Origin: an uncultured Gammaproteobacteria bacterium
Lineage (GTDB): Bacteria > Patescibacteriota > Patescibacteriia > Buchananbacterales > UBA6539
Direction of reading: 5' to 3'
Length of the DNA stretch: 60,986 nucleotides
Assembly: GCA_964535715.1 (NCBI GenBank)
Contig: CAZHUO010000004.1
Coordinates: 1 to 60,986, forward strand
Part shown: one piece after another, positions 1,182 through 34,488 of the stretch
Layout of the letters: each line of letters starts with the position of its first letter
Numbering within the stretch: position 1 is the stretch's first letter
Program-made: the position numbers and the translations under genes
The notes under the pieces: generated by a model
Database searches by the model: none
Seen by the model: only the letters and a program-made list of their open reading frames with translations
Told to the model about the DNA's origin: nothing

Positions 1182-3281
<2,100 letters not shown>

Positions 3282-3309
3282 TAAAAAAACGATAATTTAA
3301 ATATACTCT

Positions 3310-3586
3310 TCATCTCGCCCCGCACCAATTTGCACAATTTAACTTTAATAAAGGCTATTAAACCGCGGAGCAAGTCGCCGACGCTCTAAAGCTGGATAAT
3401 TACAGCTTTGGCGACGGAGCGCTTTCGGGTATTGACCCTTTGATGGCTCCTCGGCTCGGAAACAAAAAGTTGTTTACTTTTTGTTTCTCTCGCCCTACGT
3501 CGCCAATAAAAAATTTCAAGCCGAAGGCGAATTTGCGCGCTTGATTTTTTTTAAAAAAATTTGTTTTTTCGCAAAATTGGTGCGGG
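3310..3586. mobile_element. MITE-like non-coding insertion between the two gyrB 3'-end copies
   Basis: Terminal inverted repeats: gccccgcaccaattt (about 3316-3330) versus aaattggtgcggga (3573-3586). Internal 11-bp hairpin gaaacaaaaag/ctttttgtttc. The segment ctctcgccctacgtcgccaataaaaaattt recurs at window positions 51-80. Confidence 0.4.
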
Positions 3587-3628
3587 ATCCATTCCCATGC
3601 GAAATATGTAAAAAATCTCGATATATAA
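3587..3628 (+). repeat. gyrB 3'-end copy 2 (displaced, followed by a terminator)
   Basis: atccattcccatgcgaaatatgtaaaaaatctcgatatataa also translates to [13 protein letters not shown]. All 5 differences from copy 1 are synonymous third-position changes. Confidence 0.85.
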
Positions 3629-3642
3629 ATTTAACAAATAAA

Positions 3643-3674
3643 AAAGGCCCCCTAGCATCTGCCATGGGGCTTTT
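3643..3674. terminator. bidirectional intrinsic terminator
   Basis: aaaggcccc...ggggctttt hairpin flanked by an A-run and a T-run, lying between the displaced gyrB end and the stop of the minus-strand ORF. Confidence 0.55.
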
Positions 3675-3675
3675 A

Positions 3676-4149
3676 TTAATCATCGATTTGACTGGCTGCT
3701 TGCCTTTTAAAGGTGACATTTTTCAATTTATGCCTGAATAAATCAAAATCCAAATCATTAATCGGAGGTTTGCCTGAGGATCTGAGCAAATTGATTTCCG
3801 AAATCTCGGTACAAATGCGATTCCGTATTTGGCCTTCTTTTAATTTTTCATTGTGTGAAACAATCTTTTGATTATTCCAGTTTGCAATGATATTTAAAAT
3901 ATGAGCCAATATTTTCTGCCATCTTTGAGAATTCACAACCTCTCGATTTAAAGGAAAAATCTTAAACTTTGCTAAATTTCGAAAATTCGGCCAGTAAATT
4001 AAAATTGGCTTAATACAAAACTTACAGGTAATAATCGAATATAAAATACCTTCCAGCCTCTTTCTTGGCGGTTTTTTACTCATGTCTACACTATAGCAAT
4101 CTTCCTGTCCACAATGAGGGCACGAAACATAAACCGTGATATTTATCAT
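3676..4149 (-). CDS. hypothetical protein with N-terminal zinc-ribbon-like CxxC...CxxC
   Basis: 157-aa ORF containing CPHCGQEDC ... CKFC. Confidence 0.45.
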   Translation of the reverse strand: MINITVYVSCPHCGQEDCYSVDMSKKPPRKRLEGILYSIITCKFCIKPILIYWPNFRNLAKFKIFPLNREVVNSQRWQKILAHILNIIANWNNQKIVSHNEKLKEGQIRNRICTEISEINLLRSSGKPPINDLDFDLFRHKLKNVTFKRQAASQIDD

Positions 4150-19907: not shown

Positions 19908-19942
19908 TTAGGAATTAGGAATTAGGAATTAGGAATTAGGGT
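19908..19942. repeat. heptamer tandem repeat (ttaggaa x4 plus ttagggt) abutting the thrS start
   Basis: Read directly. It begins 4 nt upstream of the thrS ATG, with no Shine-Dalgarno sequence. Confidence 0.9.
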
Positions 19943-19944
19943 TT

Positions 19945-19990
19945 TGTCATTCTGAGCCTGCCAGCAAGCAGGGGTTTGTTTCAGAATCTC
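19945..19990. repeat. palindromic element tgtcattctgag...tttcagaatctc
   Basis: Outer arms attctga/tcagaat with an inner hairpin cctgc-cagcaa-gcagg. Same family as the first half of 11540-11612. Confidence 0.6.
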
Positions 19991-20012
19991 TTAATTCATA
20001 ATTCTTGATTCC

Positions 20013-20570
20013 TTATTCTTTATTCTTATTTTGCCATTCACTGCGCAATAAATCCATCCTAATCTGGTCATGGAAACATTTATTCAAATAGATTGCCTGC
20101 CTGATTCTACCAGCTTTTTTAAAACCAATTTTCTTATATGATTTTTCGCCCCTGACATTATAAGCGATATAACGCAAATAAATCATATGCAATTTCAATT
20201 TTTTAAAACCATAGTCAATTATTAATTTGCCGGCCTCAGTACCAAAGCCCTGCCCCCAATATTTTTTATCTCCAATAAAAATTCCATATTCGGCGTTTTT
20301 ATTTTCTTGGTCAATATTTTTCAAACTGACAGTCCCAATATGAACTCCGAAAGCGGTATCTATGGCAAAAGCCAGATTTTTTTTGTCTTTTTTATCCTCC
20401 ATCAGCCATTTACGCTCTTCTTTTAAAGTCGGCGGACCCTGGTGGTGCCAGCGGGATAAAAACTGAGTTAACTCCGGGTCGGCCAGCCAACGACAATAAT
20501 CGGCAGCGTCTTTTAATGACAACGGCCTTAGGGTTACGAGTTTGCCTTTTAGAATTACCTTGTTTTTCAT
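20013..20570 (-). CDS. GNAT family N-acetyltransferase (RimJ/RimL-like)
   Basis: 185 aa with WGQGFGTEA (Q/RxxGxG/A acetyl-CoA site). Confidence 0.85.
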   Translation of the reverse strand: MKNKVILKGKLVTLRPLSLKDAADYCRWLADPELTQFLSRWHHQGPPTLKEERKWLMEDKKDKKNLAFAIDTAFGVHIGTVSLKNIDQENKNAEYGIFIGDKKYWGQGFGTEAGKLIIDYGFKKLKLHMIYLRYIAYNVRGEKSYKKIGFKKAGRIRQAIYLNKCFHDQIRMDLLRSEWQNKNKE

Positions 20571-20572
20571 AT

Positions 20573-21090
20573 ACCGATGCTAATCTACTAATATATGCGA
20601 ATGATGCAAATAATTTATTACTCCTTTGGGTTTTAAATGTCTATCTCTAAAATTCACAAGAAGACCCAATTTTATTTCTTTAGCCCTTAGATATCTTTGC
20701 ATTTGATAATAATCATCCCGAGTGATAAAATTTTTGGCCTTGCATTCAATAATAATTTTATCTTCCACAATGAAATCGGCTATATTTCCGCCAATACAGT
20801 TGTCGTCATTATCAAATGATTCAAAATATATACTTACTTCTCGCTGATATTTTATGTTCGCATCTTTTATTAGTTGCTCTAACCTGTCACAATATTGTTT
20901 TTCTTTGACAAATCTTCCTAATTCATTATGAACTTAAAAGCACAAACCGGTGATTTGAAAAGAAAGTTGTGGAAATATTAGTTTTTGTTGCATATCAACA
21001 TAGCATTAATAATAAGAAGTGCTATGTTGATTTATATACTAAACTGCTATTCGTATCATTCGCATTTATTCGCATTCATTAGTATCGGCT
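20573..21090. mobile_element. inverted-repeat-bounded (IVS-like) element carrying a GxxExxY gene remnant
   Basis: The 45-nt arms are about 20573-20617 (ccgatgctaat...atgcgaatgatgcaaata) and 21047-21090 (its reverse complement, ...tattcgtatcattcgcat...attagtatcgg). The element fills the gap between the T-box terminator and the GNAT start. Confidence 0.5.
20580..20933 (-). pseudogene. GxxExxY-family (PD-(D/E)XK-like) protein, N-terminally truncated
   Basis: The frame is open from just after a TAA: VHNELGRFVKEKQY...ADFIVEDKIIIECKAK...LGLLVNF. There is no ATG, and the first usable start is GTG at 20768. Confidence 0.55.
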
Positions 21091-21271
21091 AAAAAAAGAC
21101 CAACCAGAAAAATTATCTGCTTGGGACTCCGTCTATAATAGCGGGGCGGTTCCACCCAAGTTCCCAAAGCCGACAATGCGTTGGGCACTTTAGTTTATTC
21201 AATTTATCGAAAGCTTAGCCGATTTGGTCCAAACGGAGTAAAGTTGGTGACTTTACCAATCACTTTGCGAT
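21091..21271 (-). promoter_or_regulatory. T-box riboswitch leader (candidate Thr specifier ACU)
   Basis: T-box core GGGUGGAACCGC (21157-21146). Antiterminator CUUGGG-[UGGAACC]-GCCCCG...CGGAGU-CCCAAG. Competing terminator CCAAGCAG...CUGGUUGG followed by UCUUUUUUU. GAAUAAACUA (ACU at 21194-21192), an AGUGA box and an F-box-like CCGUUU are also present. Confidence 0.75.
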
Positions 21272-21277
21272 ATTAAT

Positions 21278-21306
21278 AGTATAAAGCTAATAGCAGGTGA
21301 TGTCAA
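21278..21306 (-). promoter_or_regulatory. near-consensus sigma70 promoter driving the T-box leader
   Basis: Minus strand: TTGACA, 17 nt spacer, TATACT. Confidence 0.6.
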
Positions 21307-21367
21307 GAAAACAATTTTTGAATTGCTGAATTGTTTAATTGTTAAATTGTTCCATTGCTTAATTGCT

Positions 21368-21422
21368 TAATTGTCCTATTGAGATTGCTTCGTCGCTACG
21401 CTCCTCACAATGACCGGAGTTA
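21368..21422 (+). other. short solo attC-like hairpin site
   Basis: TAAT-t-gtcctattgag ... ctcacaatgac-cgga-GTTA, with loop cgtcgctacgctc. Confidence 0.35.
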
Positions 21423-21458
21423 TTAAACTAATTAAGAAAATCAAGTGTTTTCATGATA

Positions 21459-21486
21459 TTGACAAATAAATATTATATGCTACAAT
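21459..21486 (+). promoter_or_regulatory. near-consensus sigma70 promoter, antisense to the recombinase operon 3' end
   Basis: TTGACA, 16 nt spacer, TACAAT, followed by the gtggtttataaaccac palindrome and ggtcttttt. Confidence 0.4.
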
Positions 21487-21554
21487 GATATTGAAAAAGG
21501 CTTTCGGCCGTGGTTTATAAACCACAATTTGGCGGAAGGTCTTTTTCGTTTATT

Positions 21555-21971
21555 TCATTTTTCGACGGGAAATGTCGAGATAAGCCATTTTTGTCCAGAT
21601 CTTTTATCCTCCTTTATCTGCACAAAAAATAAATCTTTATCTTTGGTTACACCAGCAAATCGATGAAAAATTTCTGAACTCTTATTGGGGTTTTCTTTAG
21701 ATACCGGTTCATATCGTGATTTTTGAATAAGCTCAATGGCACAAGGAAAATATTTAACGCGTCTTGTTTTATCAGCTAAACTTAATTTTTGATGCAAATG
21801 GTGCCAATATAAATCTAAAAATATTTTATCTTTATTAAAATAGGCTGATCTAACATAAGGCTTTCTTTTTGTTTTGATTTTAATTAATTTATAAAATACA
21901 AATGCTTTTTTATAAGATTCTGACCATTTTGTTCCGGCAACCTTACTTGTATTAGTTTGATATATCTTCAT
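21555..21971 (-). CDS. hypothetical protein co-transcribed with the recombinase
   Basis: 138-aa ORF starting 5 nt after the recombinase stop. No motif recognised. Confidence 0.6.
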   Translation of the reverse strand: MKIYQTNTSKVAGTKWSESYKKAFVFYKLIKIKTKRKPYVRSAYFNKDKIFLDLYWHHLHQKLSLADKTRRVKYFPCAIELIQKSRYEPVSKENPNKSSEIFHRFAGVTKDKDLFFVQIKEDKRSGQKWLISTFPVEK

Positions 21972-21975
21972 AATT

Positions 21976-22851
21976 CTACAATGGCGACTTAATCTGACTT
22001 AAAAACTTATTGGAAACTCTGGTATAAATCTGAGTAGTCGTCAGACTTTTATGGCCAAGCAAAGTCTGGATATAACGAATGTCTACCCCGTCTTCAAGCA
22101 GATGGGTGGCAAAGCTATGTCGCAGGCTATGGCAAGTTGCTGATTTTCTAATTTCGGCATTGGCCAAGGCTTGTTTGAAAATTTTTTCAACCGACCTTGC
22201 AGAAAGGTACAAATTATTATAACCGGAAAAAATGTATTGCCCAAATTCTTTTTGGCAAATGAAATTTTGCAGATCAGAGACAAGTCTTTCCGAAAATATC
22301 GTCTGTCTGTCTTTTCTGCCCTTCCCCTGCCTCACCCATAATATTTTATTTTCCAAATCAAAATCCTTGACTTTCAGCTTAACGACTTCAGATACTCTTA
22401 AGCCGGCAGAATACATTAAAGCCAAAATTAATTTGTGCTTTTTATTATTTACCACATCAAGGAGTTTTCCTATTTCAGCTTTAGACAAAACCACAGGCAG
22501 CTTTTTTTCGCCCTTTGGCAGGCGGAAACTATAATAAAACCGCCTTTTTTTAACCTGGCGGTAATAAAATTTTATGGCATTAAAAGCCAAGCGGGAAGTT
22601 GAAGCAGAAACCTTCCTTTTTTCCAACAAATACCACAGATAATCCTTAATATCTGAGGCAGTAATTGAGGTCGGATCTTTTTGACAGTACCTGATTAAAT
22701 CGGTATTATAAAATAAGTAGGCCTGAACGGTTTTTGGGCTAAAATTACGAATTTCCAGTTCTTTTTTTAGGGATCCCCGCACAAAAACACTATCGAATTT
22801 AATGTGTTCGGGTTTTTCCGCACTTTTTGTATGGGGTAAATCAAAAAACAT
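21976..22851 (-). CDS. tyrosine recombinase, IntI/Xer-like, without the IntI-specific insertion
   Basis: Catalytic set is present: AGLRVSE (R), GKGRKDR (K), [10 protein letters not shown] (HxxR), LLGH, QIYTRV (Y). The N-terminal [21 protein letters not shown] and LPVVLS resemble IntI1 (recalled from memory). Confidence 0.9.
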   Translation of the reverse strand: [291 protein letters not shown]

Positions 22852-22901
22852 AGCGTTGTTCGGTTAATAATTAGAGATATAACCTAGTTATATGCGCTAT
22901 G

Positions 22902-22931
22902 TTGATAATCAAATATTAGCTAATTTATATA
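22902..22931 (+). promoter_or_regulatory. candidate outward (Pc-like) promoter facing the cassette array
   Basis: TTGATA, 18 nt spacer, TATATA. Confidence 0.3.
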
Positions 22932-22941
22932 TAAAAGTCAA

Positions 22942-22963
22942 CAACTTCGCCTAAAAGAAGTTG
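22942..22963 (+). other. attI-like junction
   Basis: caacttc-gcctaaaa-gaaGTTG. The GTT at 22960-22962 begins the first cassette's end-complementarity. Confidence 0.5.
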
Positions 22964-23033
22964 TACGAAATAATGAAAAATTCTTTTTGCCCTATCGGGC
23001 AAAATAATCGGGCTAATTTTAAATTTCTCTTTT

Positions 23034-24032
23034 ATGTATAATCCAGAAAAAAATATTCCATTTGAAAAATCTTCGGCTAGTGCTTCAACGGAAGAAATTT
23101 CTAAATCTTTTGAAAATGAAGAATCGGAACAAAATGATACATCGGAAGCTCAAAGTCAACCTATGCTCGAAAAAAATAAATACAGCCCCGAAGCCAGACA
23201 AGAACAAATTACAGAGCAAGCAACAATGATTCGCAAATGGGCAACAGAACAAGGACTTCAAGAAGGTAAGGACTTTTTAATAATCGAGAATATTAAAGAT
23301 GTTATTGGCAAAGATGAAGAAGTTGTACCGCATGAAACTAAAGCGTTTTATATGGCTATTCACGAAAATCAATACCGAAAATTTCGTGATTATTTTATAT
23401 CAAGATACAACGATGAAATGAAAGCAAAAGATTCAAAAAATGAAGTTCGTTTGGATTATAGTTGGGGTGGACGTTTCCTGGTCGGCTGGGCAGGAGTTCC
23501 TTGTGATACTGTTGCAGCTTCTGATATAGAAAATATAACAGTCCCTACTCATCATCAAGAGTTTAAACGTTTCTTTAAAAGTAAGGCAGGATTTGATTTT
23601 CCAACAGCAGAAACGCTAAATCCGATACTAAGGGAAATGTCAGACAAAGGTTTGGCATTATACGAAACTGCGCTAACCAAATTAAATGAATTAAAAGAAT
23701 CAGAAACTCTTCCTGACGATGGATATGGCTTAATCGATAGCGTTGTTCATGCTATTGAACTACTTAAAAAGGCTCAAAAAGGAAATGCGGTTACAGAACT
23801 CCCCGAAGAGATTCGTGGCACAATGCCAATAGAAACGCGCACTTATGCAGATCTGACATACAACGCAGAAGATATTGCCAACTTTGATCGCGTAATAAAA
23901 ATAACAGGAATAAAAATCCCTACTGAAGCAAGAATTGATAAGATATTTGATCAATTCAATTTTGATAGAAACCAAATGGAACAAATATGTAAAGATTTTT
24001 CTGATTATTTGATGGTAAAAAGAGAAATTTAA
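23034..24032 (+). CDS. cassette 1: hypothetical protein (332 aa)
   Basis: ORF bracketed by about 60-nt inverted repeats at 22961-23020 and 24031-24094. Confidence 0.6.
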   Translation: MYNPEKNIPFEKSSASASTEEISKSFENEESEQNDTSEAQSQPMLEKNKYSPEARQEQITEQATMIRKWATEQGLQEGKDFLIIENIKDVIGKDEEVVPHETKAFYMAIHENQYRKFRDYFISRYNDEMKAKDSKNEVRLDYSWGGRFLVGWAGVPCDTVAASDIENITVPTHHQEFKRFFKSKAGFDFPTAETLNPILREMSDKGLALYETALTKLNELKESETLPDDGYGLIDSVVHAIELLKKAQKGNAVTELPEEIRGTMPIETRTYADLTYNAEDIANFDRVIKITGIKIPTEARIDKIFDQFNFDRNQMEQICKDFSDYLMVKREI

Positions 24033-24090
24033 AATTAGCCCGATATATAATTCGCCTATCGGCGAAATAAGAATTTTTCATTACATCGTA

Positions 24091-24186
24091 CAACACGGCA
24101 TATCTGGTTACGGCTTTTATACAAAAGCCTCCACCCATATTTGCCTCTGCTACGCTACGGCAAACATCAGATATGCCGAAACGTTA
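24091..24186 (+). other. attC-like site 1
   Basis: CAAC-a-cggcatatctg ... cagatatgccg-aaac-GTTA, 96 nt, with two inner hairpins. Confidence 0.7.
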
Positions 24187-24325
24187 TATGAAATACATGT
24201 TTTCCTTTTGGGGCTATCGCCCCAGCTCTTAAAAAAGAATCCGATTTTGTTTTTCTTTTATTATAGAGGGGAAATTCGGTGTTTCCTCCGCTTCGCTCCA
24301 GAAACGATTTTAATTTTAGGGGAAA

Positions 24326-26728
24326 ATGAATACAATAAACCTGCATTACAACAAAATTATGACTGATAAAAAACAGCTCTCTGAGCAAGACATAAGAACA
24401 AAATTCATAACACCGGCTATTAAAAATGCCGGATGGGATGAAATGACACAGCTTCGTGAAGAAGTCTATTTTACTGCTGGACGAATTGAGGTTAAAGGAA
24501 AAATCGTCAAACGAGGTGAAGCCAAAAAAGCTGATTATATCCTTTATCACAAACATAATTTCCCAATTGCGGTTATTGAAGCAAAAGACAACAAGCATTC
24601 AATCGCAAGTGGAATCCAACAAGCACAAGACTACGCTGAAATTTTAGATATACCTTTTGCATATAGCTCAAATGGAGATGGTTTTTTAGAGCATGATTTT
24701 TTTACAGGAAAAGAAAGAAAACTATCTTTAGAAGAATTACCAAGCCCTACTGAACTTTTTGAACGATACAAAAAAGCAAAAGGAATTGATCAAGAAATAG
24801 AAAAAGTTATTAGCACGCCTTACTATTCTGACGGCTCGGGGAAAACTCCGCGATATTATCAAGAGGTTGCTATCAACAGAACTATTGAAGCAGTCGCAAA
24901 GGGACAAAAAAGAATCATGACAGTAATGGCTACCGGAACAGGAAAAACGCTTGTTGCCGGTCAAATTATTTGGCGACTTTGGAAATCTCGAAAAGCAAAA
25001 CGAATTTTATTTTTAGCAGACAGAAATATTTTGGTTGATCAGACAATGGTCAATGATTTTAAACATTTTGGCGACAAAATGATAAAGATTCAAAGAGGAA
25101 AAATCAGTAAAGCCCACGAGATTTATTTAGGACTCTATCAATCGCTCACCGGAAATGATGAAGAAAGAAACGCCTACAAGGAATTTAGTCCGGATTTTTT
25201 TGACTTAGTTATTATTGATGAGTGCCACAGAGGCAGTGCATCGGCAGATTCAGCGTGGCGAGAAGTTTTATCATATTTTGATAATGCCGTGCATATTGGC
25301 TTAACAGCAACACCAAAAGAGACAAATAAAATATCAAATCAAGAATATTTTGGAGAGCCTATTTATACCTACTCACTAAAACAAGGTATTGATGATGGAT
25401 TTTTGGCTCCATACAAAGTGATAAAAATAATGCTTAATAAAGACGTAGGAGGCTATCGACCAAGTATTTTTGATAGAGATCGAGAGGGGCGTGAAATTGA
25501 AGATAAAGAATATACGGAAAAAGATTTTGACAGAACGCTCGTTTTGACCGAAAGAACAAAAACAGTAGCAAAAGAAGTTTCGCAGTACTTAAAAAAGACT
25601 GATCGCTATGCAAAAACGATTATTTTTTGCGTTGATATTGAACATGCCGAACGAATGCGTGAGGCTCTTATTTCTGAAAATAGCGATCTTATAAAAGAAA
25701 ATCGTAAGTATATCATGAAGATTACAGGTGACGATAAAGAAGGAAAAGACGAACTAGACAGCTTTATTGATCCTGAAAATCCCTACCCGACAATTGTTAC
25801 CACGAGCAAGTTGATGACAACCGGCGTAGATGCTCAAACATGCAAACTCATTGTTTTAGATTCAAATATCAACTCAATGACTGAATTTAAACAGATTATT
25901 GGGCGCGGTACTCGTATCAATGAACCATACGGAAAAACACATTTTACAATTCTTGATTTTAGAAATGTAACCAAATTATTTGCCGATCCTGATTTTGACG
26001 GAGATCCTATTCAAATTAAAGAAATGAAACAAGGCGAAGAAATGGAAGTGGAAGAAGCGGATATTAGTGCTGAAATGGTAATCGAGAAAGAACCGCCAAC
26101 AGAAGAAAAGCCAGATATAATTGAAGGTGGTGAAATAGAAGAAGGACACCGAGAAAAGATTTATGTCGATAATGTTCCGGTAAATGTTGCTTACAAACAC
26201 ACGCAATACCTTGACGCAAGCGGAAAACTCATCACAGAATCGCTAAAAGACTATTCTCGCAAACAAATTCGTCAAAAATATGCTTCGTTAGATGACTTTT
26301 TGCAAAATTGGGACAAACACAAAAGAAAGTATTACATTTTTGAGGAACTCTCAAATCAAGGAATAATGCTTTCTGAACTCCAAAAAGACATGGGAGAAGA
26401 AGTCGGAAAAGATCTTGATTTGTTCGATATTGTGATGCACGTGGCTTTTGATAAGAAAAAACTCATGACACGCTCCGAACGTGCCAAAAAAGTAAGAAAG
26501 AAAAACTATCTAACAAAGTACTCGGAAAAAGCACGAAAAGTGCTTGATGCTTTACTGGATAAATACGCAGATGAAGGACTGGAATATATTGAAGATATTA
26601 ATATCCTTCGTATTGATCCGTTTATAACATTCGGCTCACCAGTTGAGATTGTAAAGGAATTTGGAGGAAGAGAACGCTATTTTCAAGCGGTCGAGGAGCT
26701 AGAACGAGAAATTTATGCTTTTAACTAA
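24326..26728 (+). CDS. hsdR: Type I restriction enzyme R subunit
   Basis: N-terminal nuclease region (ADYILY...VIEAK), helicase motifs MATGTGKT and DECHRG, TATP. Confidence 0.93.
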   Translation: MNTINLHYNKIMTDKKQLSEQDIRTKFITPAIKNAGWDEMTQLREEVYFTAGRIEVKGKIVKRGEAKKADYILYHKHNFPIAVIEAKDNKHSIASGIQQAQDYAEILDIPFAYSSNGDGFLEHDFFTGKERKLSLEELPSPTELFERYKKAKGIDQEIEKVISTPYYSDGSGKTPRYYQEVAINRTIEAVAKGQKRIMTVMATGTGKTLVAGQIIWRLWKSRKAKRILFLADRNILVDQTMVNDFKHFGDKMIKIQRGKISKAHEIYLGLYQSLTGNDEERNAYKEFSPDFFDLVIIDECHRGSASADSAWREVLSYFDNAVHIGLTATPKETNKISNQEYFGEPIYTYSLKQGIDDGFLAPYKVIKIMLNKDVGGYRPSIFDRDREGREIEDKEYTEKDFDRTLVLTERTKTVAKEVSQYLKKTDRYAKTIIFCVDIEHAERMREALISENSDLIKENRKYIMKITGDDKEGKDELDSFIDPENPYPTIVTTSKLMTTGVDAQTCKLIVLDSNINSMTEFKQIIGRGTRINEPYGKTHFTILDFRNVTKLFADPDFDGDPIQIKEMKQGEEMEVEEADISAEMVIEKEPPTEEKPDIIEGGEIEEGHREKIYVDNVPVNVAYKHTQYLDASGKLITESLKDYSRKQIRQKYASLDDFLQNWDKHKRKYYIFEELSNQGIMLSELQKDMGEEVGKDLDLFDIVMHVAFDKKKLMTRSERAKKVRKKNYLTKYSEKARKVLDALLDKYADEGLEYIEDINILRIDPFITFGSPVEIVKEFGGRERYFQAVEELEREIYAFN

Positions 26729-26733
26729 AAACT

Positions 26734-28164
26734 ATGTCTAATCTTTCAGGAATTATAAAATCAATCCAAAACATCATGCGTAAAGATCATGGTGTAGATG
26801 GTGATGCCCAAAGGCTTTCACAACTTGTTTGGATGCTTTTTCTTAAAATTTTTGATGAAACCGAAGAAGAAAAAGAAGTTTTGAATCCAAAATACAAATC
26901 ACCAATTTCTGAAGAATTACGCTGGAGAAATTGGGCGGAAAATGACGAAGGAATGACAGGTGATGACTTACTTGAATTTATCAACAACAAACTCTTTCCA
27001 GCATTCAAAAATTTTGAATACACCGCCAAAGATAATGAAGCTGGTTTTATTGTAAAATCTGTTTTTGAGGATAGTTTTAACTACATGAAAAGCGGAACGC
27101 TCATCCGCCAAGTGATCAATAAAATAAACGAGATAAACTTTAATCGAAAAGCCGACCGCGACCAATTCGGAACAATTTACGAGGAACTTTTGAGAGGCCT
27201 GCAAAGTGCAGGAAATGCTGGAGAATTTTACACTCCGCGCGCCTTAACTGAATTTATCGTCGAAATGGTAAATCCCAAATTGGGTGAAAGTATTTTTGAT
27301 CCGGCTTGTGGAACTGGCGGCTTCTTGACTTCGGTTATTGAACACGTGAGAAAAAATGATGTACATACCGCAGAAGACGAGGCGCTTATAAAGAAAACAA
27401 TCAAAGGCAGTGAACTCAAACAGCTTCCGCACATGCTTTGTGTAACAAATATGATGCTTCATGGAATTGCGGCACCGACCAATATCAAACGTGGCGATTC
27501 TTTAGCTCAACCGATTAAAGACATTAGCCCGGAGCAAAGAGTAGATTGTATCGTTGCAAATCCGCCTTTTGGAGGAACAGTTGGAGACGGAATTTTGGCA
27601 AACTTTCCTGCGACTTTAAAAACAAAAGAATCCGCCGACTTGTTTTTGATTCTTTTTATGAAACTCCTCAAGCCAAATGGCAGAGCTGGAATTGTTTTGC
27701 CTGACGGTTCGCTCACTGGTGATGGTGTAAAGGCTCGTATTCGTGAAAAATGGCTGGAAGAATGCAATTTGCACACAATAATCCGACTGCCAAATTCAGT
27801 TTTCTCTCCATATGCGACTGTTGCCACAAATTTATTATTCTTCACCAAAGGCGAACCTACAAAAGAAATTTGGTATTATGAACACCGACTTCCCGAAGGT
27901 CAAAAGTCATATTCCAAGACAAAACCAATTGAAGTCAAAGAATTTGAACCGATCAAAAACTGGTGGAACAATCGTACAGAAAGCGACATTTCATGGAAAG
28001 TTTCAATAGCTGACATTAAAGCCAAAAATTGGGAATTGGACATTAAAAATCCAGCTCAACAAGATGAGGAATATGAACACACAACCGAAGAACTAATTCA
28101 AAAACTAGAAACTTCACTTGATGAAAGCAAACAAATTTTAGAATCTTTAAAAGCCGAATTATGA
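26734..28164 (+). CDS. hsdM: Type I restriction-modification methyltransferase subunit
   Basis: HsdM N-terminal domain, the SAM site DPACGTGGF, and the catalytic NPPFG motif. Confidence 0.95.
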   Translation: MSNLSGIIKSIQNIMRKDHGVDGDAQRLSQLVWMLFLKIFDETEEEKEVLNPKYKSPISEELRWRNWAENDEGMTGDDLLEFINNKLFPAFKNFEYTAKDNEAGFIVKSVFEDSFNYMKSGTLIRQVINKINEINFNRKADRDQFGTIYEELLRGLQSAGNAGEFYTPRALTEFIVEMVNPKLGESIFDPACGTGGFLTSVIEHVRKNDVHTAEDEALIKKTIKGSELKQLPHMLCVTNMMLHGIAAPTNIKRGDSLAQPIKDISPEQRVDCIVANPPFGGTVGDGILANFPATLKTKESADLFLILFMKLLKPNGRAGIVLPDGSLTGDGVKARIREKWLEECNLHTIIRLPNSVFSPYATVATNLLFFTKGEPTKEIWYYEHRLPEGQKSYSKTKPIEVKEFEPIKNWWNNRTESDISWKVSIADIKAKNWELDIKNPAQQDEEYEHTTEELIQKLETSLDESKQILESLKAEL

Positions 28165-29396
28165 GTGAATTGATGCCAATAAAAAAAATTTTCAATTTCG
28201 AAAAAGGAAGTTTGCAAAGTACTAAATGCACGCCAGGTGCTTTTACTTTTGTAACCGCAGGTACGGATTGGAAAACCCACAATGAATTCACTCATGAGAC
28301 AGAAGCTTTGATTTTGGCTGTAGCCGCTGCCGGATCATTAGGCCGTTGTCATTACATAAAAGGTAAATTTATCGCAAGCGACCTTTGCTTTATACTAACC
28401 CCAAAAAATAATGAATTATTACCAGTCGATTTAGAATTTTATCATCAACTTTTTAAAGTATTAAAGGACGACTTGGTCCAAAAAACAGCCACAGGAACAT
28501 CTAAACTATCAATTAACAGATCAAACTTTGGCAATTACAAAATTCCCTATTTTGACATATCGCATCAAAGAAAGTTTAAAAATATTTTAAATAAAATTAT
28601 CGATAAAAAAGAAAAGTTATTATCTTGCAGTAAAAACCAAGAAAATTTAATTGATTTTTTAAGAAAACAAGTTCTTCATGATGTGATTTCTGGTAATCTT
28701 ACTACTGATCAAAAAACAAAAAAATATACTATTGAATCTACAAGCGAGATGTTTGAAAAAATCAGAGAAGTAAGAGAAAAAATGATAAAAGACAAAAAGA
28801 TTAAAAAAGACAAACAACTTCCACCAATCTCAATGAATGAAGTGCCGTTCGAGATACGCTCACAATATTTATGGGCAAGAGTAGACAATTTATTTTTTAT
28901 CAAAAAAGGAGAAACGGGTATAAAAAAGGCCAATCCCGGAATTTATCCATTAGTTGTTACTGCCGAAGAGCGATTAACACATAATGTTTATGAAATTGAC
29001 GGCGAGGCTATTTTAATACCAATGGTTTCGTCTACGGGACACGGTCATGCATCACTTAAAAGAATTCACTTTCAAGATGGTAAATTTGCACTAGGCTCAA
29101 TCCTTTCAGCTTTAATACCAATTACTCCAGAGTTTATCTCTGCAAAATTTTACTACTATTTTTTAAACAACTACAGAAACCAATTAATCGTAAGTAGAAT
29201 GGGTGGAGCCGCAAATGTTGCACTTACGCAAAAAGCATTAAGAAGTATAATCGTTCCTGTATTACCAATAGAGGTTCAACAGAAAGCAGTTAGATTGTTA
29301 GAGTGCGCTAATTTAATAGAAGGAAAAATAAAACAAAACAAACAAGATGCAGAAATGCTGATGCAAAGTTTTTTGGTTGAGGCTTTTAAAAGTTAA
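28161..29396 (+). CDS. hsdS: Type I restriction-modification specificity subunit
   Basis: Two target-recognition halves separated by a coiled spacer, with an ATGA overlap onto hsdM. Confidence 0.85.
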   Translation: MSELMPIKKIFNFEKGSLQSTKCTPGAFTFVTAGTDWKTHNEFTHETEALILAVAAAGSLGRCHYIKGKFIASDLCFILTPKNNELLPVDLEFYHQLFKVLKDDLVQKTATGTSKLSINRSNFGNYKIPYFDISHQRKFKNILNKIIDKKEKLLSCSKNQENLIDFLRKQVLHDVISGNLTTDQKTKKYTIESTSEMFEKIREVREKMIKDKKIKKDKQLPPISMNEVPFEIRSQYLWARVDNLFFIKKGETGIKKANPGIYPLVVTAEERLTHNVYEIDGEAILIPMVSSTGHGHASLKRIHFQDGKFALGSILSALIPITPEFISAKFYYYFLNNYRNQLIVSRMGGAANVALTQKALRSIIVPVLPIEVQQKAVRLLECANLIEGKIKQNKQDAEMLMQSFLVEAFKS

Positions 29397-29398
29397 TT

Positions 29399-30871
29399 AT
29401 GGATATATACTTTTCAGACTATTTTAAGATAAAACCGGAAGTACTTGAAAAGTATGGTGCATTTAACATTTCCCTTGTTTCCGATTTACCATTATTTATT
29501 GATCCCTTTTTACTTTTCAATAGCAAAAAACCTGAATACCAAGAATTGCATAATCAGATCATTGAATACCTAAAATTTTTAAAACAAAAATCAACAACTG
29601 GCGAAATAGAAAAAGGTGCACTTGAATCTTGGTATAAATTTAGCGAGGTAGAACAAAATTGGCTTGGTTTTGCAAAAGGTGGGAACAAGGGTAGTGGTCT
29701 TGGCATGGACTTTGCAAGTGCGCTAAATGGAAACTTGCATAAAATTTTTAAAAAATTTGGAGAGGAAGAGATAACAAAAGGCAGTCATCTTGAAAAACTT
29801 TGCCTTATTAAAGAAGGTGTAGGTAAAGATAGTATCAGCGATTTTGCGACAAATTTAATCAAAGAATTTTTACTTACATACACAGAAGAATTTGCAAAAG
29901 AACACATAGATCAATCTTTAACCGATATTTTCCGTGTTCAGAGAGTAAAATTTAATACTGAAACTGAAACTTGGGAGGAAAAAGAATTCGTTTTGCCTAA
30001 ATTCAAAAATGATTACGTATTACTTACACCAAAAGAATTATTAACAAAGGACGATACTTGGATTAACAAAACTGACTTAATAGAAGATTTTGACAGAATC
30101 CCAAATGCAATATCGAATGAACAGCTTAGATTTCAAGTAAATAACTACCTACAAAGCCAACTCACAAACGAGCCCGACAAAGAGCCAACAAAGAAAGAAA
30201 AGGGAGCTGCAATCTTTGCAACATTACAAAAGTTTCCAGAACTTATAGACTTTTTCATTAAATACAAGGAAGAAAATGGAGATTTGGCAGAGAGCATAAG
30301 TAATCAAAAAATCATTTTTTCTGAACAGGTGTACATCGCCAATGTTCAAAATTTTGTAAAAGGACTAAAGAAAACAGAATTTTATGATAGCCCACCCACT
30401 GCAAGCTTTGAAGAAGCAAAAAAGAAAATTGAGATTCTAAAAAAATTCGTTGAAAACAAAGATGGTTATCGTCTTTTTTACGACAAAAACGGAAATGTAA
30501 TCTCAAATGAAAGTGATCTACAGCTACTTTTTATGCTAGCATGTAGTGAATCAATTTTTGACATAAACAGAGAGCCAAACAATGGACGTGGTCCGGTAGA
30601 TTTTACAGTTTCATTCGGGAAAAAAGACAAAACACTAGTCGAGTTTAAATTGGCTGGCAACAAGCAATTAAAAAGAAACTTACAAAAACAAGTTGAGATA
30701 TATCAAGAAGCAAACGAAACTGACATGGCATTTAAAGTCATAATTTATTTTACTGAAGATGAAGAAAGTCGAGCAAAGAGAATTTTAAAAGAAATTGGAC
30801 TTGAAAATCAGAAGAATATAATATTAATAGACGGACGAAATGATAATAAGCCATCAGCATCAAAAGCATAA
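29399..30871 (+). CDS. hypothetical protein coupled to hsdS, with a C-terminal PD-(D/E)XK-like motif
   Basis: 490 aa, starting 2 nt after the hsdS stop. The C-terminus reads ...ESDLQLLF...GRGPVDFTVSF...LVEFKLAG (D...ExK pattern). Confidence 0.6.
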   Translation: MDIYFSDYFKIKPEVLEKYGAFNISLVSDLPLFIDPFLLFNSKKPEYQELHNQIIEYLKFLKQKSTTGEIEKGALESWYKFSEVEQNWLGFAKGGNKGSGLGMDFASALNGNLHKIFKKFGEEEITKGSHLEKLCLIKEGVGKDSISDFATNLIKEFLLTYTEEFAKEHIDQSLTDIFRVQRVKFNTETETWEEKEFVLPKFKNDYVLLTPKELLTKDDTWINKTDLIEDFDRIPNAISNEQLRFQVNNYLQSQLTNEPDKEPTKKEKGAAIFATLQKFPELIDFFIKYKEENGDLAESISNQKIIFSEQVYIANVQNFVKGLKKTEFYDSPPTASFEEAKKKIEILKKFVENKDGYRLFYDKNGNVISNESDLQLLFMLACSESIFDINREPNNGRGPVDFTVSFGKKDKTLVEFKLAGNKQLKRNLQKQVEIYQEANETDMAFKVIIYFTEDEESRAKRILKEIGLENQKNIILIDGRNDNKPSASKA

Positions 30872-31073
30872 CGAATTGTTTTCGGTCGGGGCAATTCCCC
30901 CTTTTGTTCCCCTCTTGCCCCTCCCTCAAACAAAAAAGAAATAATGTGTTTTGGGCTTCGGGCATTCACCCCTTTAGTTCCCCTCTGCTCTTCGCCCAAA
31001 ACGGAAAAACAAAACCGGATTCTTTTTTAGAGCGATTTGCTATCGCAAATCAAAGGAAAACATGTACATCATA

Positions 31074-31169
31074 TAACACGGCATATCTGGTTACGGCTTT
31101 TATACAAAAGCCTCCACCCATATTTGCCTCCGCTACGCTACGGCAAACATCAGATATGCCAAAACGTTA
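31074..31169 (+). other. attC-like site 2
   Basis: TAAC...aaaacGTTA. It matches site 1 at 93 of 96 positions. Confidence 0.7.
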
Positions 31170-31242
31170 GTTGCAATTTTTGAGTCGGCCTACTACACGA
31201 ATTAACAAACTTTATAAACATTCAATAACTGATAATTATATT

Positions 31243-31725
31243 ATGAAAAAATTTCTTAAGAACCCTCTGGTCAAGAACATTTTATCGGCATTAGCCGTGG
31301 CCATTTTCGGCTTTATACTGTTAATTCTTACATTTCTCTTTGATGCCATTTTCCAAAGTTTAGTAGATGGTATCATTAAACTTTTTACGCCAGTTGATAT
31401 CAATATGACCTGGTATTGGTTTCCGCCAATAAAACACGCTTCATTTATTGTCATCATTAGCCTAATTTCATGGCTTGTTTTCAGATCAAAACTAAAAGTG
31501 CTTTACAAAGCGATTTATATGACTGTGCCCGTTGCTACTGTTTTAGTGACTGTAGGAATGTTTTTGTATCGCTGGCCGATAGTTGTTTATTCTGTTGGTA
31601 GTTTACTTTGTATTGGCACTTTATACTATTTCTATCGCACCAAACAGCCATGGCTTTATTATTATACTGTGGTTTTAGTAGGGTTTACCTTGGCAATTTT
31701 TACTCTATTGGGTGGAGAAATCTAG
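31243..31725 (+). CDS. cassette 3: multi-TM membrane protein
   Basis: Start moved to ATG 31243, because the track start is a TTG inside the cassette-end repeat. About 4 hydrophobic helices. Confidence 0.6.
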   Translation: MKKFLKNPLVKNILSALAVAIFGFILLILTFLFDAIFQSLVDGIIKLFTPVDINMTWYWFPPIKHASFIVIISLISWLVFRSKLKVLYKAIYMTVPVATVLVTVGMFLYRWPIVVYSVGSLLCIGTLYYFYRTKQPWLYYYTVVLVGFTLAIFTLLGGEI

Positions 31726-31849
31726 TACTTATTTTTTCAAACGCAATAACCTAAATTCTTATTGATTAACGGCCGACTCAAAAACTTTGATTTTTTGCCT
31801 TCGGCATCGTTGCACTAAAAATCAACCACTCCAAGTATTCGTGGGCAAC

Positions 31850-31942
31850 TAACAGGCATTAACCGACTTCGCTCGGTTGCACCTCACTCCGTCCAAATTT
31901 GCTCCGCTACGCTCCACAAACTTCGGTTAATGCCATACGTTA
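31850..31942 (+). other. attC-like site 3
   Basis: TAAC-a-ggcattaaccga ... tcggttaatgcc-atac-GTTA, 93 nt. Confidence 0.65.
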
Positions 31943-31983
31943 TGTGAAATTTTTCTAAGGCGAGCTTCTAAATAACAACGATT

Positions 31984-32397
31984 ATGAAACTTTGTAGTGC
32001 ATGTCTATTGGGTTTAAAGTGCCGTTACGATGGCAAAAGTAAGCCCCATGAAAAAGTTATAAATTTGGCCACCAAGGAAACTTTGATTCCCGTCTGTCCT
32101 GAACAGTTGGGTGGCTTATCTACTCCGCGAAAACCTGCTGAGCAAAAAAATGGTCGAGTTATAACTGAGGATGGCGATGATATTACGATAAATTTTGAAA
32201 ATGGCGCGAAGCAGGTTTTAGAATTGGCCAAATTATACAATATAAAAAGCGCTATCCTCAAACAGCGAAGTCCTTCTTGCGGATGTGGCCAAATTTATGA
32301 CGGAACTTTTTCAGGGGCTATTATTGAAGGTGATGGTATCACTACAAAGTTTCTTAAAGAAAATGGTATCGAAGTGCTAACAGAGGATGATCTATAA
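31984..32397 (+). CDS. cassette 4: DUF523-family protein
   Basis: N-terminal CSACLLGLKCRYDG, characteristic of DUF523 (family assigned from memory). Confidence 0.7.
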   Translation: MKLCSACLLGLKCRYDGKSKPHEKVINLATKETLIPVCPEQLGGLSTPRKPAEQKNGRVITEDGDDITINFENGAKQVLELAKLYNIKSAILKQRSPSCGCGQIYDGTFSGAIIEGDGITTKFLKENGIEVLTEDDL

Positions 32398-32426
32398 TCG
32401 ACGGCTCGCTTTAGAAAAACATCACA

Positions 32427-32606
32427 TAACAAAGAATATCCGGCTCAAAAATTTTTCACTAATATATTTTTAATGTAAGAAAAATTTTCTCGACCCAAAT
32501 CCCGCGCGGTGTGAAATTAAGCCATTTGCCACTTAAAAAGTTTGGGAATAGAATAAGTTTTACGCTCTTAATATGGGCGCGGGACTTCGGATATTCTTAA
32601 ACGTTA
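32427..32606 (+). other. attC-like site 4 (long, 180 nt)
   Basis: TAAC-a-aagaatatccg ... cggatattctt-aaac-GTTA, with inner pairing cccgcgc/gcgcggg. Confidence 0.6.
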
Positions 32607-32683
32607 GAAGAAACTACTAGAAAACTTAGAAATTTCTTATGTATATCTGCTAACTAATAAAATTAATCAATAAATAAAACAAC

Positions 32684-32947
32684 ATGGAACAAGAAAAATA
32701 CAAGCCACAAGAATTCTATAAAGATACTGAAATTAACAGAGAAGACATAATTGCCGAGACGGCAATAATTTTAGAAAACACCAAAAAATTTCCTGATCCA
32801 ACCAGGGCTGATATAGTTGGAATTACCAAGGCAAAAGTAGAAATCAGAAAGGTATTAAGAAACAAAGGACTTAGTGAATGGAATATTGAATGCCTTGAAC
32901 CTGAAATTCGCCAAGATGCCCAAAAACTTCTAACTTTGTTTAAATAA
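32684..32947 (+). CDS. hypothetical protein (87 aa)
   Basis: ORF only. It is the first unit after the last attC-like site. Confidence 0.45.
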   Translation: MEQEKYKPQEFYKDTEINREDIIAETAIILENTKKFPDPTRADIVGITKAKVEIRKVLRNKGLSEWNIECLEPEIRQDAQKLLTLFK

Positions 32948-33066
32948 TTCGTTTTATTTAGGAGTAAGAAGAATTTTAGGCAAACATTTTCCCGATGTGT
33001 ATAAACTTAAACGGCCAATCATCGCATGTCAATTACCAAAAGACTTTATTATTAACTATAAATAAT

Positions 33067-33612
33067 ATGCCTCCACATTGCGACACAATGGACGGTCCCA
33101 TTGTAAAAATGGCCCAAAAGGCACTTGACGAAAAAAATATAGATTTAATTTTGCCTTATGCTTACAAAGATGGTGAAAAAGAAATTAAAGACGCTTTTCA
33201 AAAAGTTATTGCCATTAGAAATACCAATGATTCTGTCAGAAAAATTGCGGATTTATATTTCTTTGAAACAGTAGTAAGAGTTCATCGCGCAGGCGAAGGG
33301 GCTCCATATACGGGGCTAAAGCCTGCCGGCTTAAGCGAGGGTCCGATAATCCCCATTGCCGAAAAAGCAATAGAAACTGAATCGGCAGTCGAATTAATCA
33401 ATACTCTGTGCCATTATGTAGAAGAATATGTCGGCAGCCGTTTCAAAAAAATGTTAGAACTAAAAAAAGATAAAGATGCAAATGTCGATAAAGCGCGCGA
33501 ATATGTTGAGGCTATGCTTGGCCTTCAAGTTTACTCGCATAAAGTTTATTTATCACTTATAGCGGATCCCCATGCCAAAGTTGAACATAAGGCAGAAGCT
33601 CATAAACATTAA
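33067..33612 (+). CDS. conserved hypothetical protein (MPPHCDTMDGP N-terminus, DUF6448-like from memory)
   Basis: Start moved to ATG 33067. His-rich C-terminus. Confidence 0.55.
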   Translation: MPPHCDTMDGPIVKMAQKALDEKNIDLILPYAYKDGEKEIKDAFQKVIAIRNTNDSVRKIADLYFFETVVRVHRAGEGAPYTGLKPAGLSEGPIIPIAEKAIETESAVELINTLCHYVEEYVGSRFKKMLELKKDKDANVDKAREYVEAMLGLQVYSHKVYLSLIADPHAKVEHKAEAHKH

Positions 33613-33661
33613 TAATATCATGGACAAAAATCCTATAAGCGTTTGACTGTAGCCAATAACA

Positions 33662-34033
33662 ATGGATATTATCATAAAAAAATCAAAGCTAAACAAAAAG
33701 GGCATTTTTGCGGCCAGAAATTTTAAAAAAGGTGATGTCATAATAATATGGAAATCTAAAAAAATTTTATCAAAAAAGGAACTAGGCCAACTTCCCAAAT
33801 CAGAACTCCATTATATATCCAACTACAAACCAAATGAGTTTTTGCTTCAACAAGCGCCTGAAAGGTATGTAAATCATTCATGTAATCCGAATACCAAAGT
33901 AAGAAACAATAGCGATATTGCAATCAATGATATAAAAAAAGGAGAAGAAATAACCTCGGACTATTCAGTTGCCAACATCCAACAGCACTTTGTTTGTAAA
34001 TGCGGCAGCAAAAACTGCAAAGGATTCATATAA
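33662..34033 (+). CDS. SET-domain protein (putative lysine methyltransferase)
   Basis: YVNHSCNPN, GEEITSDY and a C-terminal CKCGSKNC post-SET-like motif. Confidence 0.85.
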   Translation: MDIIIKKSKLNKKGIFAARNFKKGDVIIIWKSKKILSKKELGQLPKSELHYISNYKPNEFLLQQAPERYVNHSCNPNTKVRNNSDIAINDIKKGEEITSDYSVANIQQHFVCKCGSKNCKGFI

Positions 34034-34131
34034 AAAAACAACACTTAATTATTTATTTAAATTTGAAAGGAGGCAGACCTTGATTTTAGCCTCTTTTTTG
34101 CTATAATTATATTAGAAATAACTGAAATAAT

Positions 34132-34488
34132 ATGGAAAATGAAAACTTGGACACATTTACCCTGGAAGAGCAAAATGAATTAATTGAAAGGCATTTTAGA
34201 AACGGCAAGGGATTAAGTGCTGATTATATTAACGCCTATGCTTATATTGACGCACTGCTGCGGGATATGGAGCTTGAAAAAATTAAGCCGGTGAAAACCT
34301 ACCGCGAATATTTGATGAATACGCCGGAATACTACCACCATACAATGGAACTAAGCGACGATAAGGCAATTGCCGAACTGGACCGGTTGGTTAATGAATT
34401 CAATTCGGATGTGGAAAGGATAAAGAGAGAAAAAGATGCAAATACAGTTAGAAATTTTATCCGGTCTGTAAATGATTTGGTAAAATAA
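34132..34488 (+). CDS. hypothetical protein
   Basis: 118-aa acidic helical ORF. Confidence 0.45.
   Translation: MENENLDTFTLEEQNELIERHFRNGKGLSADYINAYAYIDALLRDMELEKIKPVKTYREYLMNTPEYYHHTMELSDDKAIAELDRLVNEFNSDVERIKREKDANTVRNFIRSVNDLVK

Follow-up and report, generated by a model that had tools for sequence, protein, structure and literature searches.

An insert-less IntI-related recombinase that probably serves an integron-like cassette platform in a Patescibacteria genome

In classical integrons the integrase gene is divergent from an array of co-oriented gene cassettes and the attI site lies beside the integrase gene, while the attC sites follow the layout R''-(unpaired spacer)-L''-variable loop-L'-R' with AAC and GTT triplets. 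Crossover occurs at GTT and leaves each cassette with first bases that pair with its own R''; turnover takes place on the integrase-proximal side, and restriction-modification systems are part of the cargo. An extra domain, reported to be necessary for activity, is what defines integron integrases, and detection software demands it. The insert of the integron subgroup was described as "essential for integron function", and Xer-related recombinases from candidate phyla were placed in a subgroup 'Cand' with an assumed Xer-like role (Smyshlyaev et al. 2021, PMC8138268). With such an insert-requiring tool, 539 attC sites but only six IntIs were found in archaea (Ghaly et al., PMC9668308), and a 2026 permafrost study reported that 97.4% of contigs with 'integron-type' recombinases were not called complete integrons by the same tool. 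Here we analyzed a stretch of 60,986 nucleotides (contig CAZHUO010000004.1, positions 1 to 60,986, hereafter the window) that encodes a 291-aa IntI-like tyrosine recombinase without this insert. The analysis of the sequences suggested with good confidence that the recombinase is the integrase of a chromosomal integron-like cassette platform, with modified attC sites, in a Patescibacteria (Buchananbacteria-like) genome. In the openly searchable literature, subscription-only papers being outside the scope, no description of Patescibacteria cassette arrays headed by insert-less integrases was found.

A preliminary description of this DNA had reported the recombinase and an adjacent open reading frame (ORF) of 138 aa, and both were present on the minus strand where it had placed them. 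It had overlooked four co-oriented plus-strand cassettes which occupy 22960-32609 on the other side of the recombinase. The parts of the locus are listed below, where two sets of coordinates are given for each attC-like site, the site itself and, in brackets, its entry in the feature list.

21976..22851, minus strand: IntI-like tyrosine recombinase, 291 aa (from the ORF, Pfam and alignments)
22935..22966, plus strand: candidate attI, GTCAAC-N17-GTT, with the cassette junction right after ...GCCTAAAAGAAGTT
22960..24182, plus strand: cassette 1, a 332-aa ORF without assigned function (23034-24032) with inverted ends of ~75 nt
24088-24189 (24084..24194), plus strand: attC-like site 1, CATCGTACAAC-A-CGGCATATCTG...CAGATATGCCG-AAAC-GTTATATGAAAT
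24183..31165, plus strand: cassette 2, a type I restriction-modification operon (hsdR 24326-26728, hsdM 26734-28164, hsdS 28161-29396, all plus strand) and a 490-aa ORF (29399-30871)
31071-31172 (31067..31177), plus strand: attC-like site 2, 94% identical to site 1
31166..31938, plus strand: cassette 3, a hydrophobic 184-aa ORF (31171-31725), probably a membrane protein
31847-31945 (31843..31950), plus strand: attC-like site 3, GGGCAACTAAC-A-GGCATTAACCGA...TCGGTTAATGCC-ATAC-GTTATGTGAAAT
31939..32602, plus strand: cassette 4, a 137-aa protein of the 2-thiouracil desulfurase family (PF04463; 31984-32397)
32424-32609 (32420..32614), plus strand: attC-like site 4, the last of the array, with 186 nt between its R boxes

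The recombinase matched both Pfam profiles that had been named for it (PF00589, 3.5e-41; PF13495, 2.2e-18), and the alignment showed a complete active site consisting of R152, K177, H241, R244, H267, and Y276. The blocks and motifs said to be shared with IntI were all found, namely a block of 21 letters at position 77, LPVVLS at 118, GLRVSE at 150, GKGRKDR at 176, HSLRHSFAT at 241, LLGH at 264, and IYT at 275, and the top match among solved structures was the Vibrio integron integrase 2a3v (1.7e-45). It is in these shared blocks that the recombinase comes closest to IntI, and a C-terminal SPL(D) motif is common to the two. The alignment with 2a3v consists of two blocks (query residues 27-199 and 219-291), between which 19 query residues stand opposite 62 of IntI. 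In alignment A1, the stretch ARAWWLKDQ...WPWFWVFAQHTHSTDPR of IntI1 is missing from the query and from 12 homologues; the IntI1 reference sequence was checked and was 100% identical to annotated intI1. The claim that the IntI-specific insert around patch III is absent was thus borne out by the alignments to IntI1 and 2a3v. The spacing between KDR and H(S/T)LRH is 58 residues in the recombinase in comparison to 100 in IntI1, so that the figures of 47 and 88 given earlier need correction, while the deficit of ~42 residues holds. Consistent with this, the recombinase scored 222 against the cut-off of 265 for the NCBIfam integron-integrase model TIGR02249, which it matched in two stretches.

The XerA structures 4a8e and 5hxy align colinearly with the recombinase at ~1e-40, and XerD at 7e-23. 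In a trimmed alignment, the recombinase family was 35-40% identical to IntI1, IntI4, and XerA, and ~30% identical to XerD. A neighbor-joining tree rooted on XerD joined the family with IntI1 and IntI4 and left out both XerA sequences in each of 200 bootstraps. One sub-branch of the family (P0168, P0170, P0209, P0218, P0221, P0227, and P0237; 47-54% identity) carries an extra N-terminal domain of ~65 aa (..VKFPYNPDYIAKIKSVKGYKWHPDEKYWSIP..) in alignment A1, and one member of the wider family comes from an Aenigmarchaeota (DPANN) assembly.

The array was characterized by a strict scan which demanded AAC, a perfect 9-bp stem, its partner, and GTT. The scan returned exactly four sites in the window, all on the plus strand within 22960-32609, in comparison to a mean of 0.19 for dinucleotide shuffles, and no such site on the other strand or elsewhere in the 61 kb; no further cassettes were found beyond 32609. 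It is only the composite architecture that is significant, as the motif GTTRTRYGAAAT alone gave five matches in the window against 3.4 expected. All four sites folded as expected in the predictions for single-stranded DNA. Repeat analysis showed long inverted repeats around each gene or gene block, as well as a direct repeat of 113 nt at 24082 and 31065. Each cassette starts with GTT and four bases which are the reverse complement of the four bases preceding the AAC of its own distal site; the third cassette, for example, starts with GTTAGTT and ends with AACTAAC. Since the boundaries lie at GTT, the first bases of a cassette pair with its own R'', and this complementarity is the classical integron cassette signature. 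Unlike in classical integrons, the complementarity of the cassette ends in the window extends 27-75 nt, beyond the R box.

For comparison we assembled 82 loci whose recombinases are 43-66% identical to that of the window, including L016 from a genome and 80 metagenome loci at 43-64%. The insert was found in none of the 80 metagenome relatives. The scan of genome contigs gave only two close relatives, both Buchananbacteria, and the genome with 66% identity (L016) has the same layout, with an attI of ...GTCAACCAGTTCGCATAAACTAA|GTTATATGACAT. The attI pattern GTCAAC-N17-GTT, which in the window lies ~110 nt upstream of the integrase gene, is conserved in L016, L017, and L006. Across the 82 loci, the strict scan placed 55 sites on the strand opposite to the recombinase and upstream of it, against 7 at all other positions, even though more sequence was searched downstream (363 kb) than upstream (250 kb). 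Among the 29 loci with at least 3 kb upstream, about 20 have at least one strict site. The results showed that the integron-like platform, as judged from these sites, recurs widely among the related loci.

The sites share a common parts list. In order, these are the R'' box (CATC-RNNY-AAC), a single unpaired A, the L stem (9-12 bp, with the conserved core G.ATAT..GG), a loop that varies, then the L' arm, an unpaired stretch of 3-5 nucleotides (usually AAAC), and the R' box (GTT-RNNY-GAAAT). Beyond what the scan itself imposes, the 63 sites conserve ACATC before RNNYAAC, A after AAC, and G.ATAT..GG.T in the L arm, together with AAAC before GTT and GAAAT after GTTRNNY. The attC-like sites are 73-198 nt long, with a median of 104. 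A search by flank motifs, with no stem requirement, gave 30 matches in array position and 2 elsewhere. A terminal stem was predicted for 28 of these 30, and in 27 of the 28 there was 1 unpaired nucleotide on the 5' side in comparison to 3-5 on the 3' side. The L stems of these sites had eleven uninterrupted pairs in 15 of 28 cases and one unpaired base on the 3' side in 8 of 28. The variable four nucleotides of R'' were fully complementary to the start of their own cassette in 15/30 sites, but to the adjacent R' in only 2/30 (Wilcoxon p = 0.0007). In comparison to classical attC sites, the R box is longer, with 11-12 conserved nucleotides, the L stems are mostly uninterrupted, the asymmetry lies in the spacer (1 vs 4 nt) and not in extrahelical bases, some sites carry a whole gene in the loop, and the host is one of the ultra-small Patescibacteria.

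Cassette exchange is also indicated by natural variants. An identical recombinase is encoded on seven contigs from two sequencing projects, of which L012, L014, and L015 match the arrangement of the window and L010, L011, and L013 carry an alternative, so that each arrangement is present in at least three independent assemblies. The alternative contigs are 99.9% identical to the window over 19911-22971 on the integrase side, and L010 is 98.2% identical to it over 31145-34346 on the distal side. Between these two stretches, 8.2 kb of the window (cassettes 1 and 2) is replaced by 6.7 kb of other cassettes whose cargo includes an RrnaAD-type methyltransferase, another methyltransferase block, and an HNH protein. 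At the proximal junction, ...GCCTAAAAGAAGTT is followed by GTACGAAAT in the window and by AGACGAAAT in L010, and the breakpoint of the variants falls at ...AAAAGAAGTT| (also given as ...AAGAAGTT|), that is, at GTT. The first cassette of L010 starts with GTTAGAC and ends at its own GTCTAAC. At the distal end, the junction coincides with the R' of the site just ahead of the third cassette, which both arrangements have in common. Because the variant junctions fall at sites, the turnover is concentrated beside the recombinase and bounded exactly by sites. A circular cassette was also looked for, and no contig of this kind was seen among those carrying cassette proteins.

These junctions also bear on whether the palindromes could be repeats or terminators of a general kind, as found between genes in Patescibacteria, that lie near a recombinase by coincidence. 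Parts of the cassette ends do look like intrinsic terminators and similar elements are present in many contigs, but sites of this kind are found nowhere else in the 61-kb window, they are biased by strand and side relative to the recombinase (55 vs 7 and 30 vs 2), the complementarity of R'' and R' tracks cassette membership, and the natural-variant breakpoints lie exactly on sites. We therefore consider such a coincidence highly improbable.

Elements of the cassette ends in the window recur in many related loci. The ends and attC-like site of cassette 1 are found again, with 89-92% identity, in the second cassette of L101, an array headed by a recombinase of only 43% identity (window 22960-23033 and 24018-24189 vs L101 5396-5334 and 4487-4330), while the enclosed ORFs are unrelated (BLASTP E = 2.1). 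To judge from these alignments, the palindromic cassette frame seems to be reused with different cargo. One attC site of L016 is nearly identical to one of L010. In L010 at ~3197-3865 (reverse-complement 9077-9745), an attC-like site has L'' and L' arms ~660 nt apart, and a 173-aa gene, itself between another inverted repeat, lies in its loop. Frames reused with unrelated cargo, as in cassette 1 and L101, and a gene within an attC loop, as in L010, may show how new cassettes arise. Cassettes with unrelated restriction-modification genes have two conserved elements in common that are partly complementary to each other, a 5' element (GAGGGGAAAT..GGTGTTTCCTCCGCTnCGCT..GAAACGATTT) and a 3' element (TTTTGGGCTTCGGGCATTCACCCC..CCCCTCTGC.CTTCGCCCAAA), located at 24262-24310 and 30950-31000 in the window and at 8349-8400 and 11378-11425 in L006, and present also in L010, L044, L045, and L071.

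The neighborhood of the type I operon could suggest another role, in which the recombinase would act on the restriction-modification system as a switching invertase, in the way known from phase-variable hsdS shufflons, given that a tyrosine recombinase lies 1.5 kb from hsdRMS and inverted repeats surround the restriction-modification block. The inverted repeats, however, surround every cassette including those unrelated to restriction-modification, and most related arrays have other cargo. Phase variation was rejected since there is a single hsdS with no partial copies and since the variants differ by the replacement of entire cassettes, not by inversion, so that an invertase role is very improbable.

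In the mechanism that we propose by analogy with integrons, the attC-like sites would probably take their folded form in single-stranded DNA, or else by cruciform extrusion, and two recombinase monomers would occupy the R and L boxes; TAT..G is common to the L arm and the R arm. Cleavage would take place at AAC/GTT, recombination between two attC-like sites would excise a circular cassette, and recombination between attI and an attC-like site would insert it beside the integrase. Because the enzyme is without the helix that grips extrahelical bases and most L stems are without bulged bases, we propose that the choice of strand and orientation is probably set by the conserved asymmetry of the unpaired spacers (1 vs 4 nt) together with the longer, Xer-like R arm of 11-12 nt.

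The recombinase has the same length and domain order as archaeal XerA and other single-recombinase Xer systems (XerA/dif, XerS/difSL, XerH/difH), being colinear with 4a8e and 5hxy. It could instead be a housekeeping single Xer (XerA- or XerS-like) with dif beside its gene, at which Xer-exploiting elements have piled up in the manner of IMEX (integrative mobile elements exploiting Xer). XerS adjoins difSL, so that its recombination site stands beside the gene as in the window, and XerCD can recombine the folded single-stranded hairpin of the CTX phage, which serves as a Xer substrate; both facts speak for this explanation. There is no second tyrosine recombinase in the 61-kb window, and the attI junction with the present first cassette forms a palindrome ACAACTTC-N8-GAAGTTGT of dif-like geometry. 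Modules bounded by Xer-type sites are also known from DNA that exploits Xer, such as the CTX phage and the pdif modules of Acinetobacter plasmids. Such proteins have been assigned to the Xer-related subgroup 'Cand', which may replace Xer (PMC8138268). No double-stranded dif of 28-31 bp (two 11-bp arms and a 6-9-bp spacer) was identified in the window, which at 61 kb is too short to locate the replication terminus. On the other hand, the repeated sites are hairpins of 73-198 nt with covarying stems, many in tandem and with variable content between them, in contrast to 28-31-bp double-stranded dif copies. The attI palindrome varies with the cassette and is missing from L016, and the polymorphic junction falls at GTT, six bases inside the putative arm, instead of at the boundary of arm and spacer. 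The locus lies at a divergent and not a convergent switch of gene orientation, and the small tree places the family with IntI and not with XerA. Whereas IMEX and pdif elements use the host XerC/XerD at dif or at 28-bp pdif, the window has a dedicated IntI-related enzyme and sites of attC layout. Taken together, we regard a housekeeping Xer with accumulated elements as unlikely, though a Xer role and an integron-like role may coexist.

Several observations weigh against the integron-like platform. The recombinase passes the NCBIfam XerA model NF040815 (recomb_XerA_Arch) with 234.4 against a cut-off of 220, and since it does so while failing the integron-integrase model, the housekeeping Xer role keeps a place among the explanations. 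The tree is small, with five reference sequences of which two are partial, and its placement of the family is for this reason taken as supportive only. Among the 29 loci with at least 3 kb upstream, about 8 have no strict site. The ends of several cassettes contain terminator-like hairpins, and because of these a single upstream promoter fits poorly. The following promoter-like element was nevertheless listed for the window.

22681..22709, plus strand: TTGACA-17-TATTAT inside the recombinase gene, aimed into the array, by inference only a possible analogue of Pc

The total of promoter-like matches in the window equals chance, while the region is enriched for them in the homologues (25/82 vs 10/164). 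Finally, while the parts list, the site architecture, the complementarity of the core, the breakpoints at GTT, and the cassette ends common to distant arrays are read from the sequences, the folded single-stranded substrate and recombination itself are inferred by analogy.

By the integron criteria of Messier & Roy 2001 and IntegronFinder, the locus lacks one formal feature, the insert, and has the architectural ones as far as they can be read from sequence: attI, attC-like sites, a co-oriented divergent array, the GTT crossover signature, and cassette turnover. Because the insert is lacking while the architecture holds, we classed the platform as a variant and not as a member of the integrons. 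A full integron architecture stands here under an enzyme without the extra domain and recurs across a large and poorly known bacterial radiation. If the platform is active, the definition and census of integrons must widen, the transition from Xer to IntI and the roles of extrahelical bases and spacer asymmetry in strand choice become directly testable, genome-reduced episymbionts have a route for gene flux that includes restriction-modification and defense genes, and the reuse of frames with unrelated cargo provides a concrete lead on the origin of cassettes. It is tempting, though tentative, to go further and place the Patescibacteria platforms on a deep branch that is sister to the integrons, or to see in them a proto-integron that has survived; in either case an enzyme of Xer length might already carry out attI x attC exchange. 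Should this be true, cassette exchange would not depend on the IntI insert, which would have been added at a later stage as a refinement. Software that demands the insert would then have overlooked an entire branch of integron biology, and this could also account for the many integrase-less attC arrays of archaea (6 IntIs vs 539 attC sites, PMC9668308).

Patterns of this kind were also scanned in viral contigs, where the matches were mostly due to chance and only L188 and L159 had 2-3 convincing sites. These tandem attC-like sites from IMG/VR (L188 7854-10152 and L159 1123-1790, both minus strand) are either cassettes on phages of these bacteria or misclassified host DNA.

The preliminary description had further proposed that the ORF next to the recombinase supplies a missing function.

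21555..21971, minus strand: 138-aa ORF, a conserved Patescibacteria protein (from homologues, fold and contexts)

In this explanation the insert-less recombinase works with the 138-aa protein, which provides the missing attC-binding function, and the two genes do lie on the same strand and occur together in 7/7 contigs of the population, 4 nt apart (AATT; the gap had been given as 5 nt). Yet a homologue of the 138-aa protein was found in 0/82 loci with related recombinases, and arrays exist without the 138-aa gene; in 64 of these loci the sequence extends 600 nt or more downstream. The family itself is well conserved in Patescibacteria, with 568 matches at 60-74% identity. In seven independent contexts it had no adjacent recombinase, with one case at a distance of 3.5 kb and in the other orientation, and its neighbors were genes for pyrimidine biosynthesis, glycosyltransferases, FtsH, or transketolase, or small unassigned ORFs. 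The adjacency is limited to contigs of the window's own population. The protein had no match in Pfam, NCBIfam, or PHROGs. Its confident AlphaFold model (mean predicted local distance difference test score, pLDDT, 94.5) gave nothing significant in a fold search of the PDB, and in BFVD it resembled the LPD3 and MuF-C-terminal domains of phage polyvalent proteins (E = 6e-4, template modeling score 0.51-0.58), which also speaks against an attC-binding partner. Because the 138-aa homologues are absent next to homologous recombinases, the point on which the preliminary description itself had let the proposal depend, the partner role is refuted, leaving it with hardly any probability; the 138-aa gene is an unrelated conserved neighbor outside the recombination system.

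The 138-aa gene also has a conserved downstream hairpin of its own in every lineage examined, a further argument against the partnership. This 55-nt hairpin lies directly 3' of the gene (window 21487-21545; AAAAAGGCUUUCGGCC-GUGGUUUAUAAACCAC-...GGCGGAAGGUCUUUUU), is conserved with compensatory changes in 6/6 lineages compared, and follows the 138-aa genes of L001, L002, L005, L006, and L008 as it does in the window. Its DNA identity of 80-90% is above the conservation of the protein, and a conserved TTGACA-type promoter (window 21459-21486, plus strand) is directed at it from its distal side. The hairpin could serve as a terminator in both directions, or a small RNA linked to the 138-aa gene could be made convergently here. 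In contigs of Magasanikbacteria type, a pair of bAvd and reverse transcriptase genes resembling a diversity-generating retroelement lies a few kb from the 138-aa gene (L002 4788-6206, L003 2288-3706, and L004 629-2047), and gyrB there carries an intein.

A hairpin at the start codon of the recombinase had been reported as well, with the suggestion that it controls translation.

22847..22903, minus strand: hairpin AACATAGCG...CGCTATGTT with arms AACAUAGCG / CGCUAUGUU and the AUG of the recombinase in its 3' arm (from folding and conservation)

Its existence was confirmed at 22847-22903: the stem has 9 bp, the folding z-score is -3.0, and the arms are identical in L016 and L017 and show two compensatory pair changes in L006. 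Translational control is plausible from these features, which are compatible with it without proving it. The same hairpin (CAACAUAGCG...CGCUAUGUU), again enclosing an AUG in the 3' arm, stands not only before the recombinase gene but also before an unrelated PD-(D/E)XK gene (PF13366), at 20994-21031 and 22847-22903 in the window and at 150-205 and 1350-1390 in L017; the PD-(D/E)XK gene has decayed in the window, where a fragment is left at 20580-20768. The loop of the start-codon hairpin, between the integrase gene and attI, contains ATATAAC-CTA-GTTATAT (22878-22894), that is, two inverted R-box-like heptamers, and the pair ATATAAC-NNN-GTTATAT is also present at 161-177 of L017. The inverted heptamers may provide the integrase with an additional binding site or serve in autoregulation.

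Downstream of the recombinase region, a non-coding stretch of ~190 nt is conserved between the window (21085-21290 and 21048-21075) and L017 (1060-1330), and is followed by three GCGAAT repeats. A search of Rfam with 20400-41000 returned no family for the attC-like sites or for the conserved non-coding elements, including this stretch, which may be a structured RNA of a new type.

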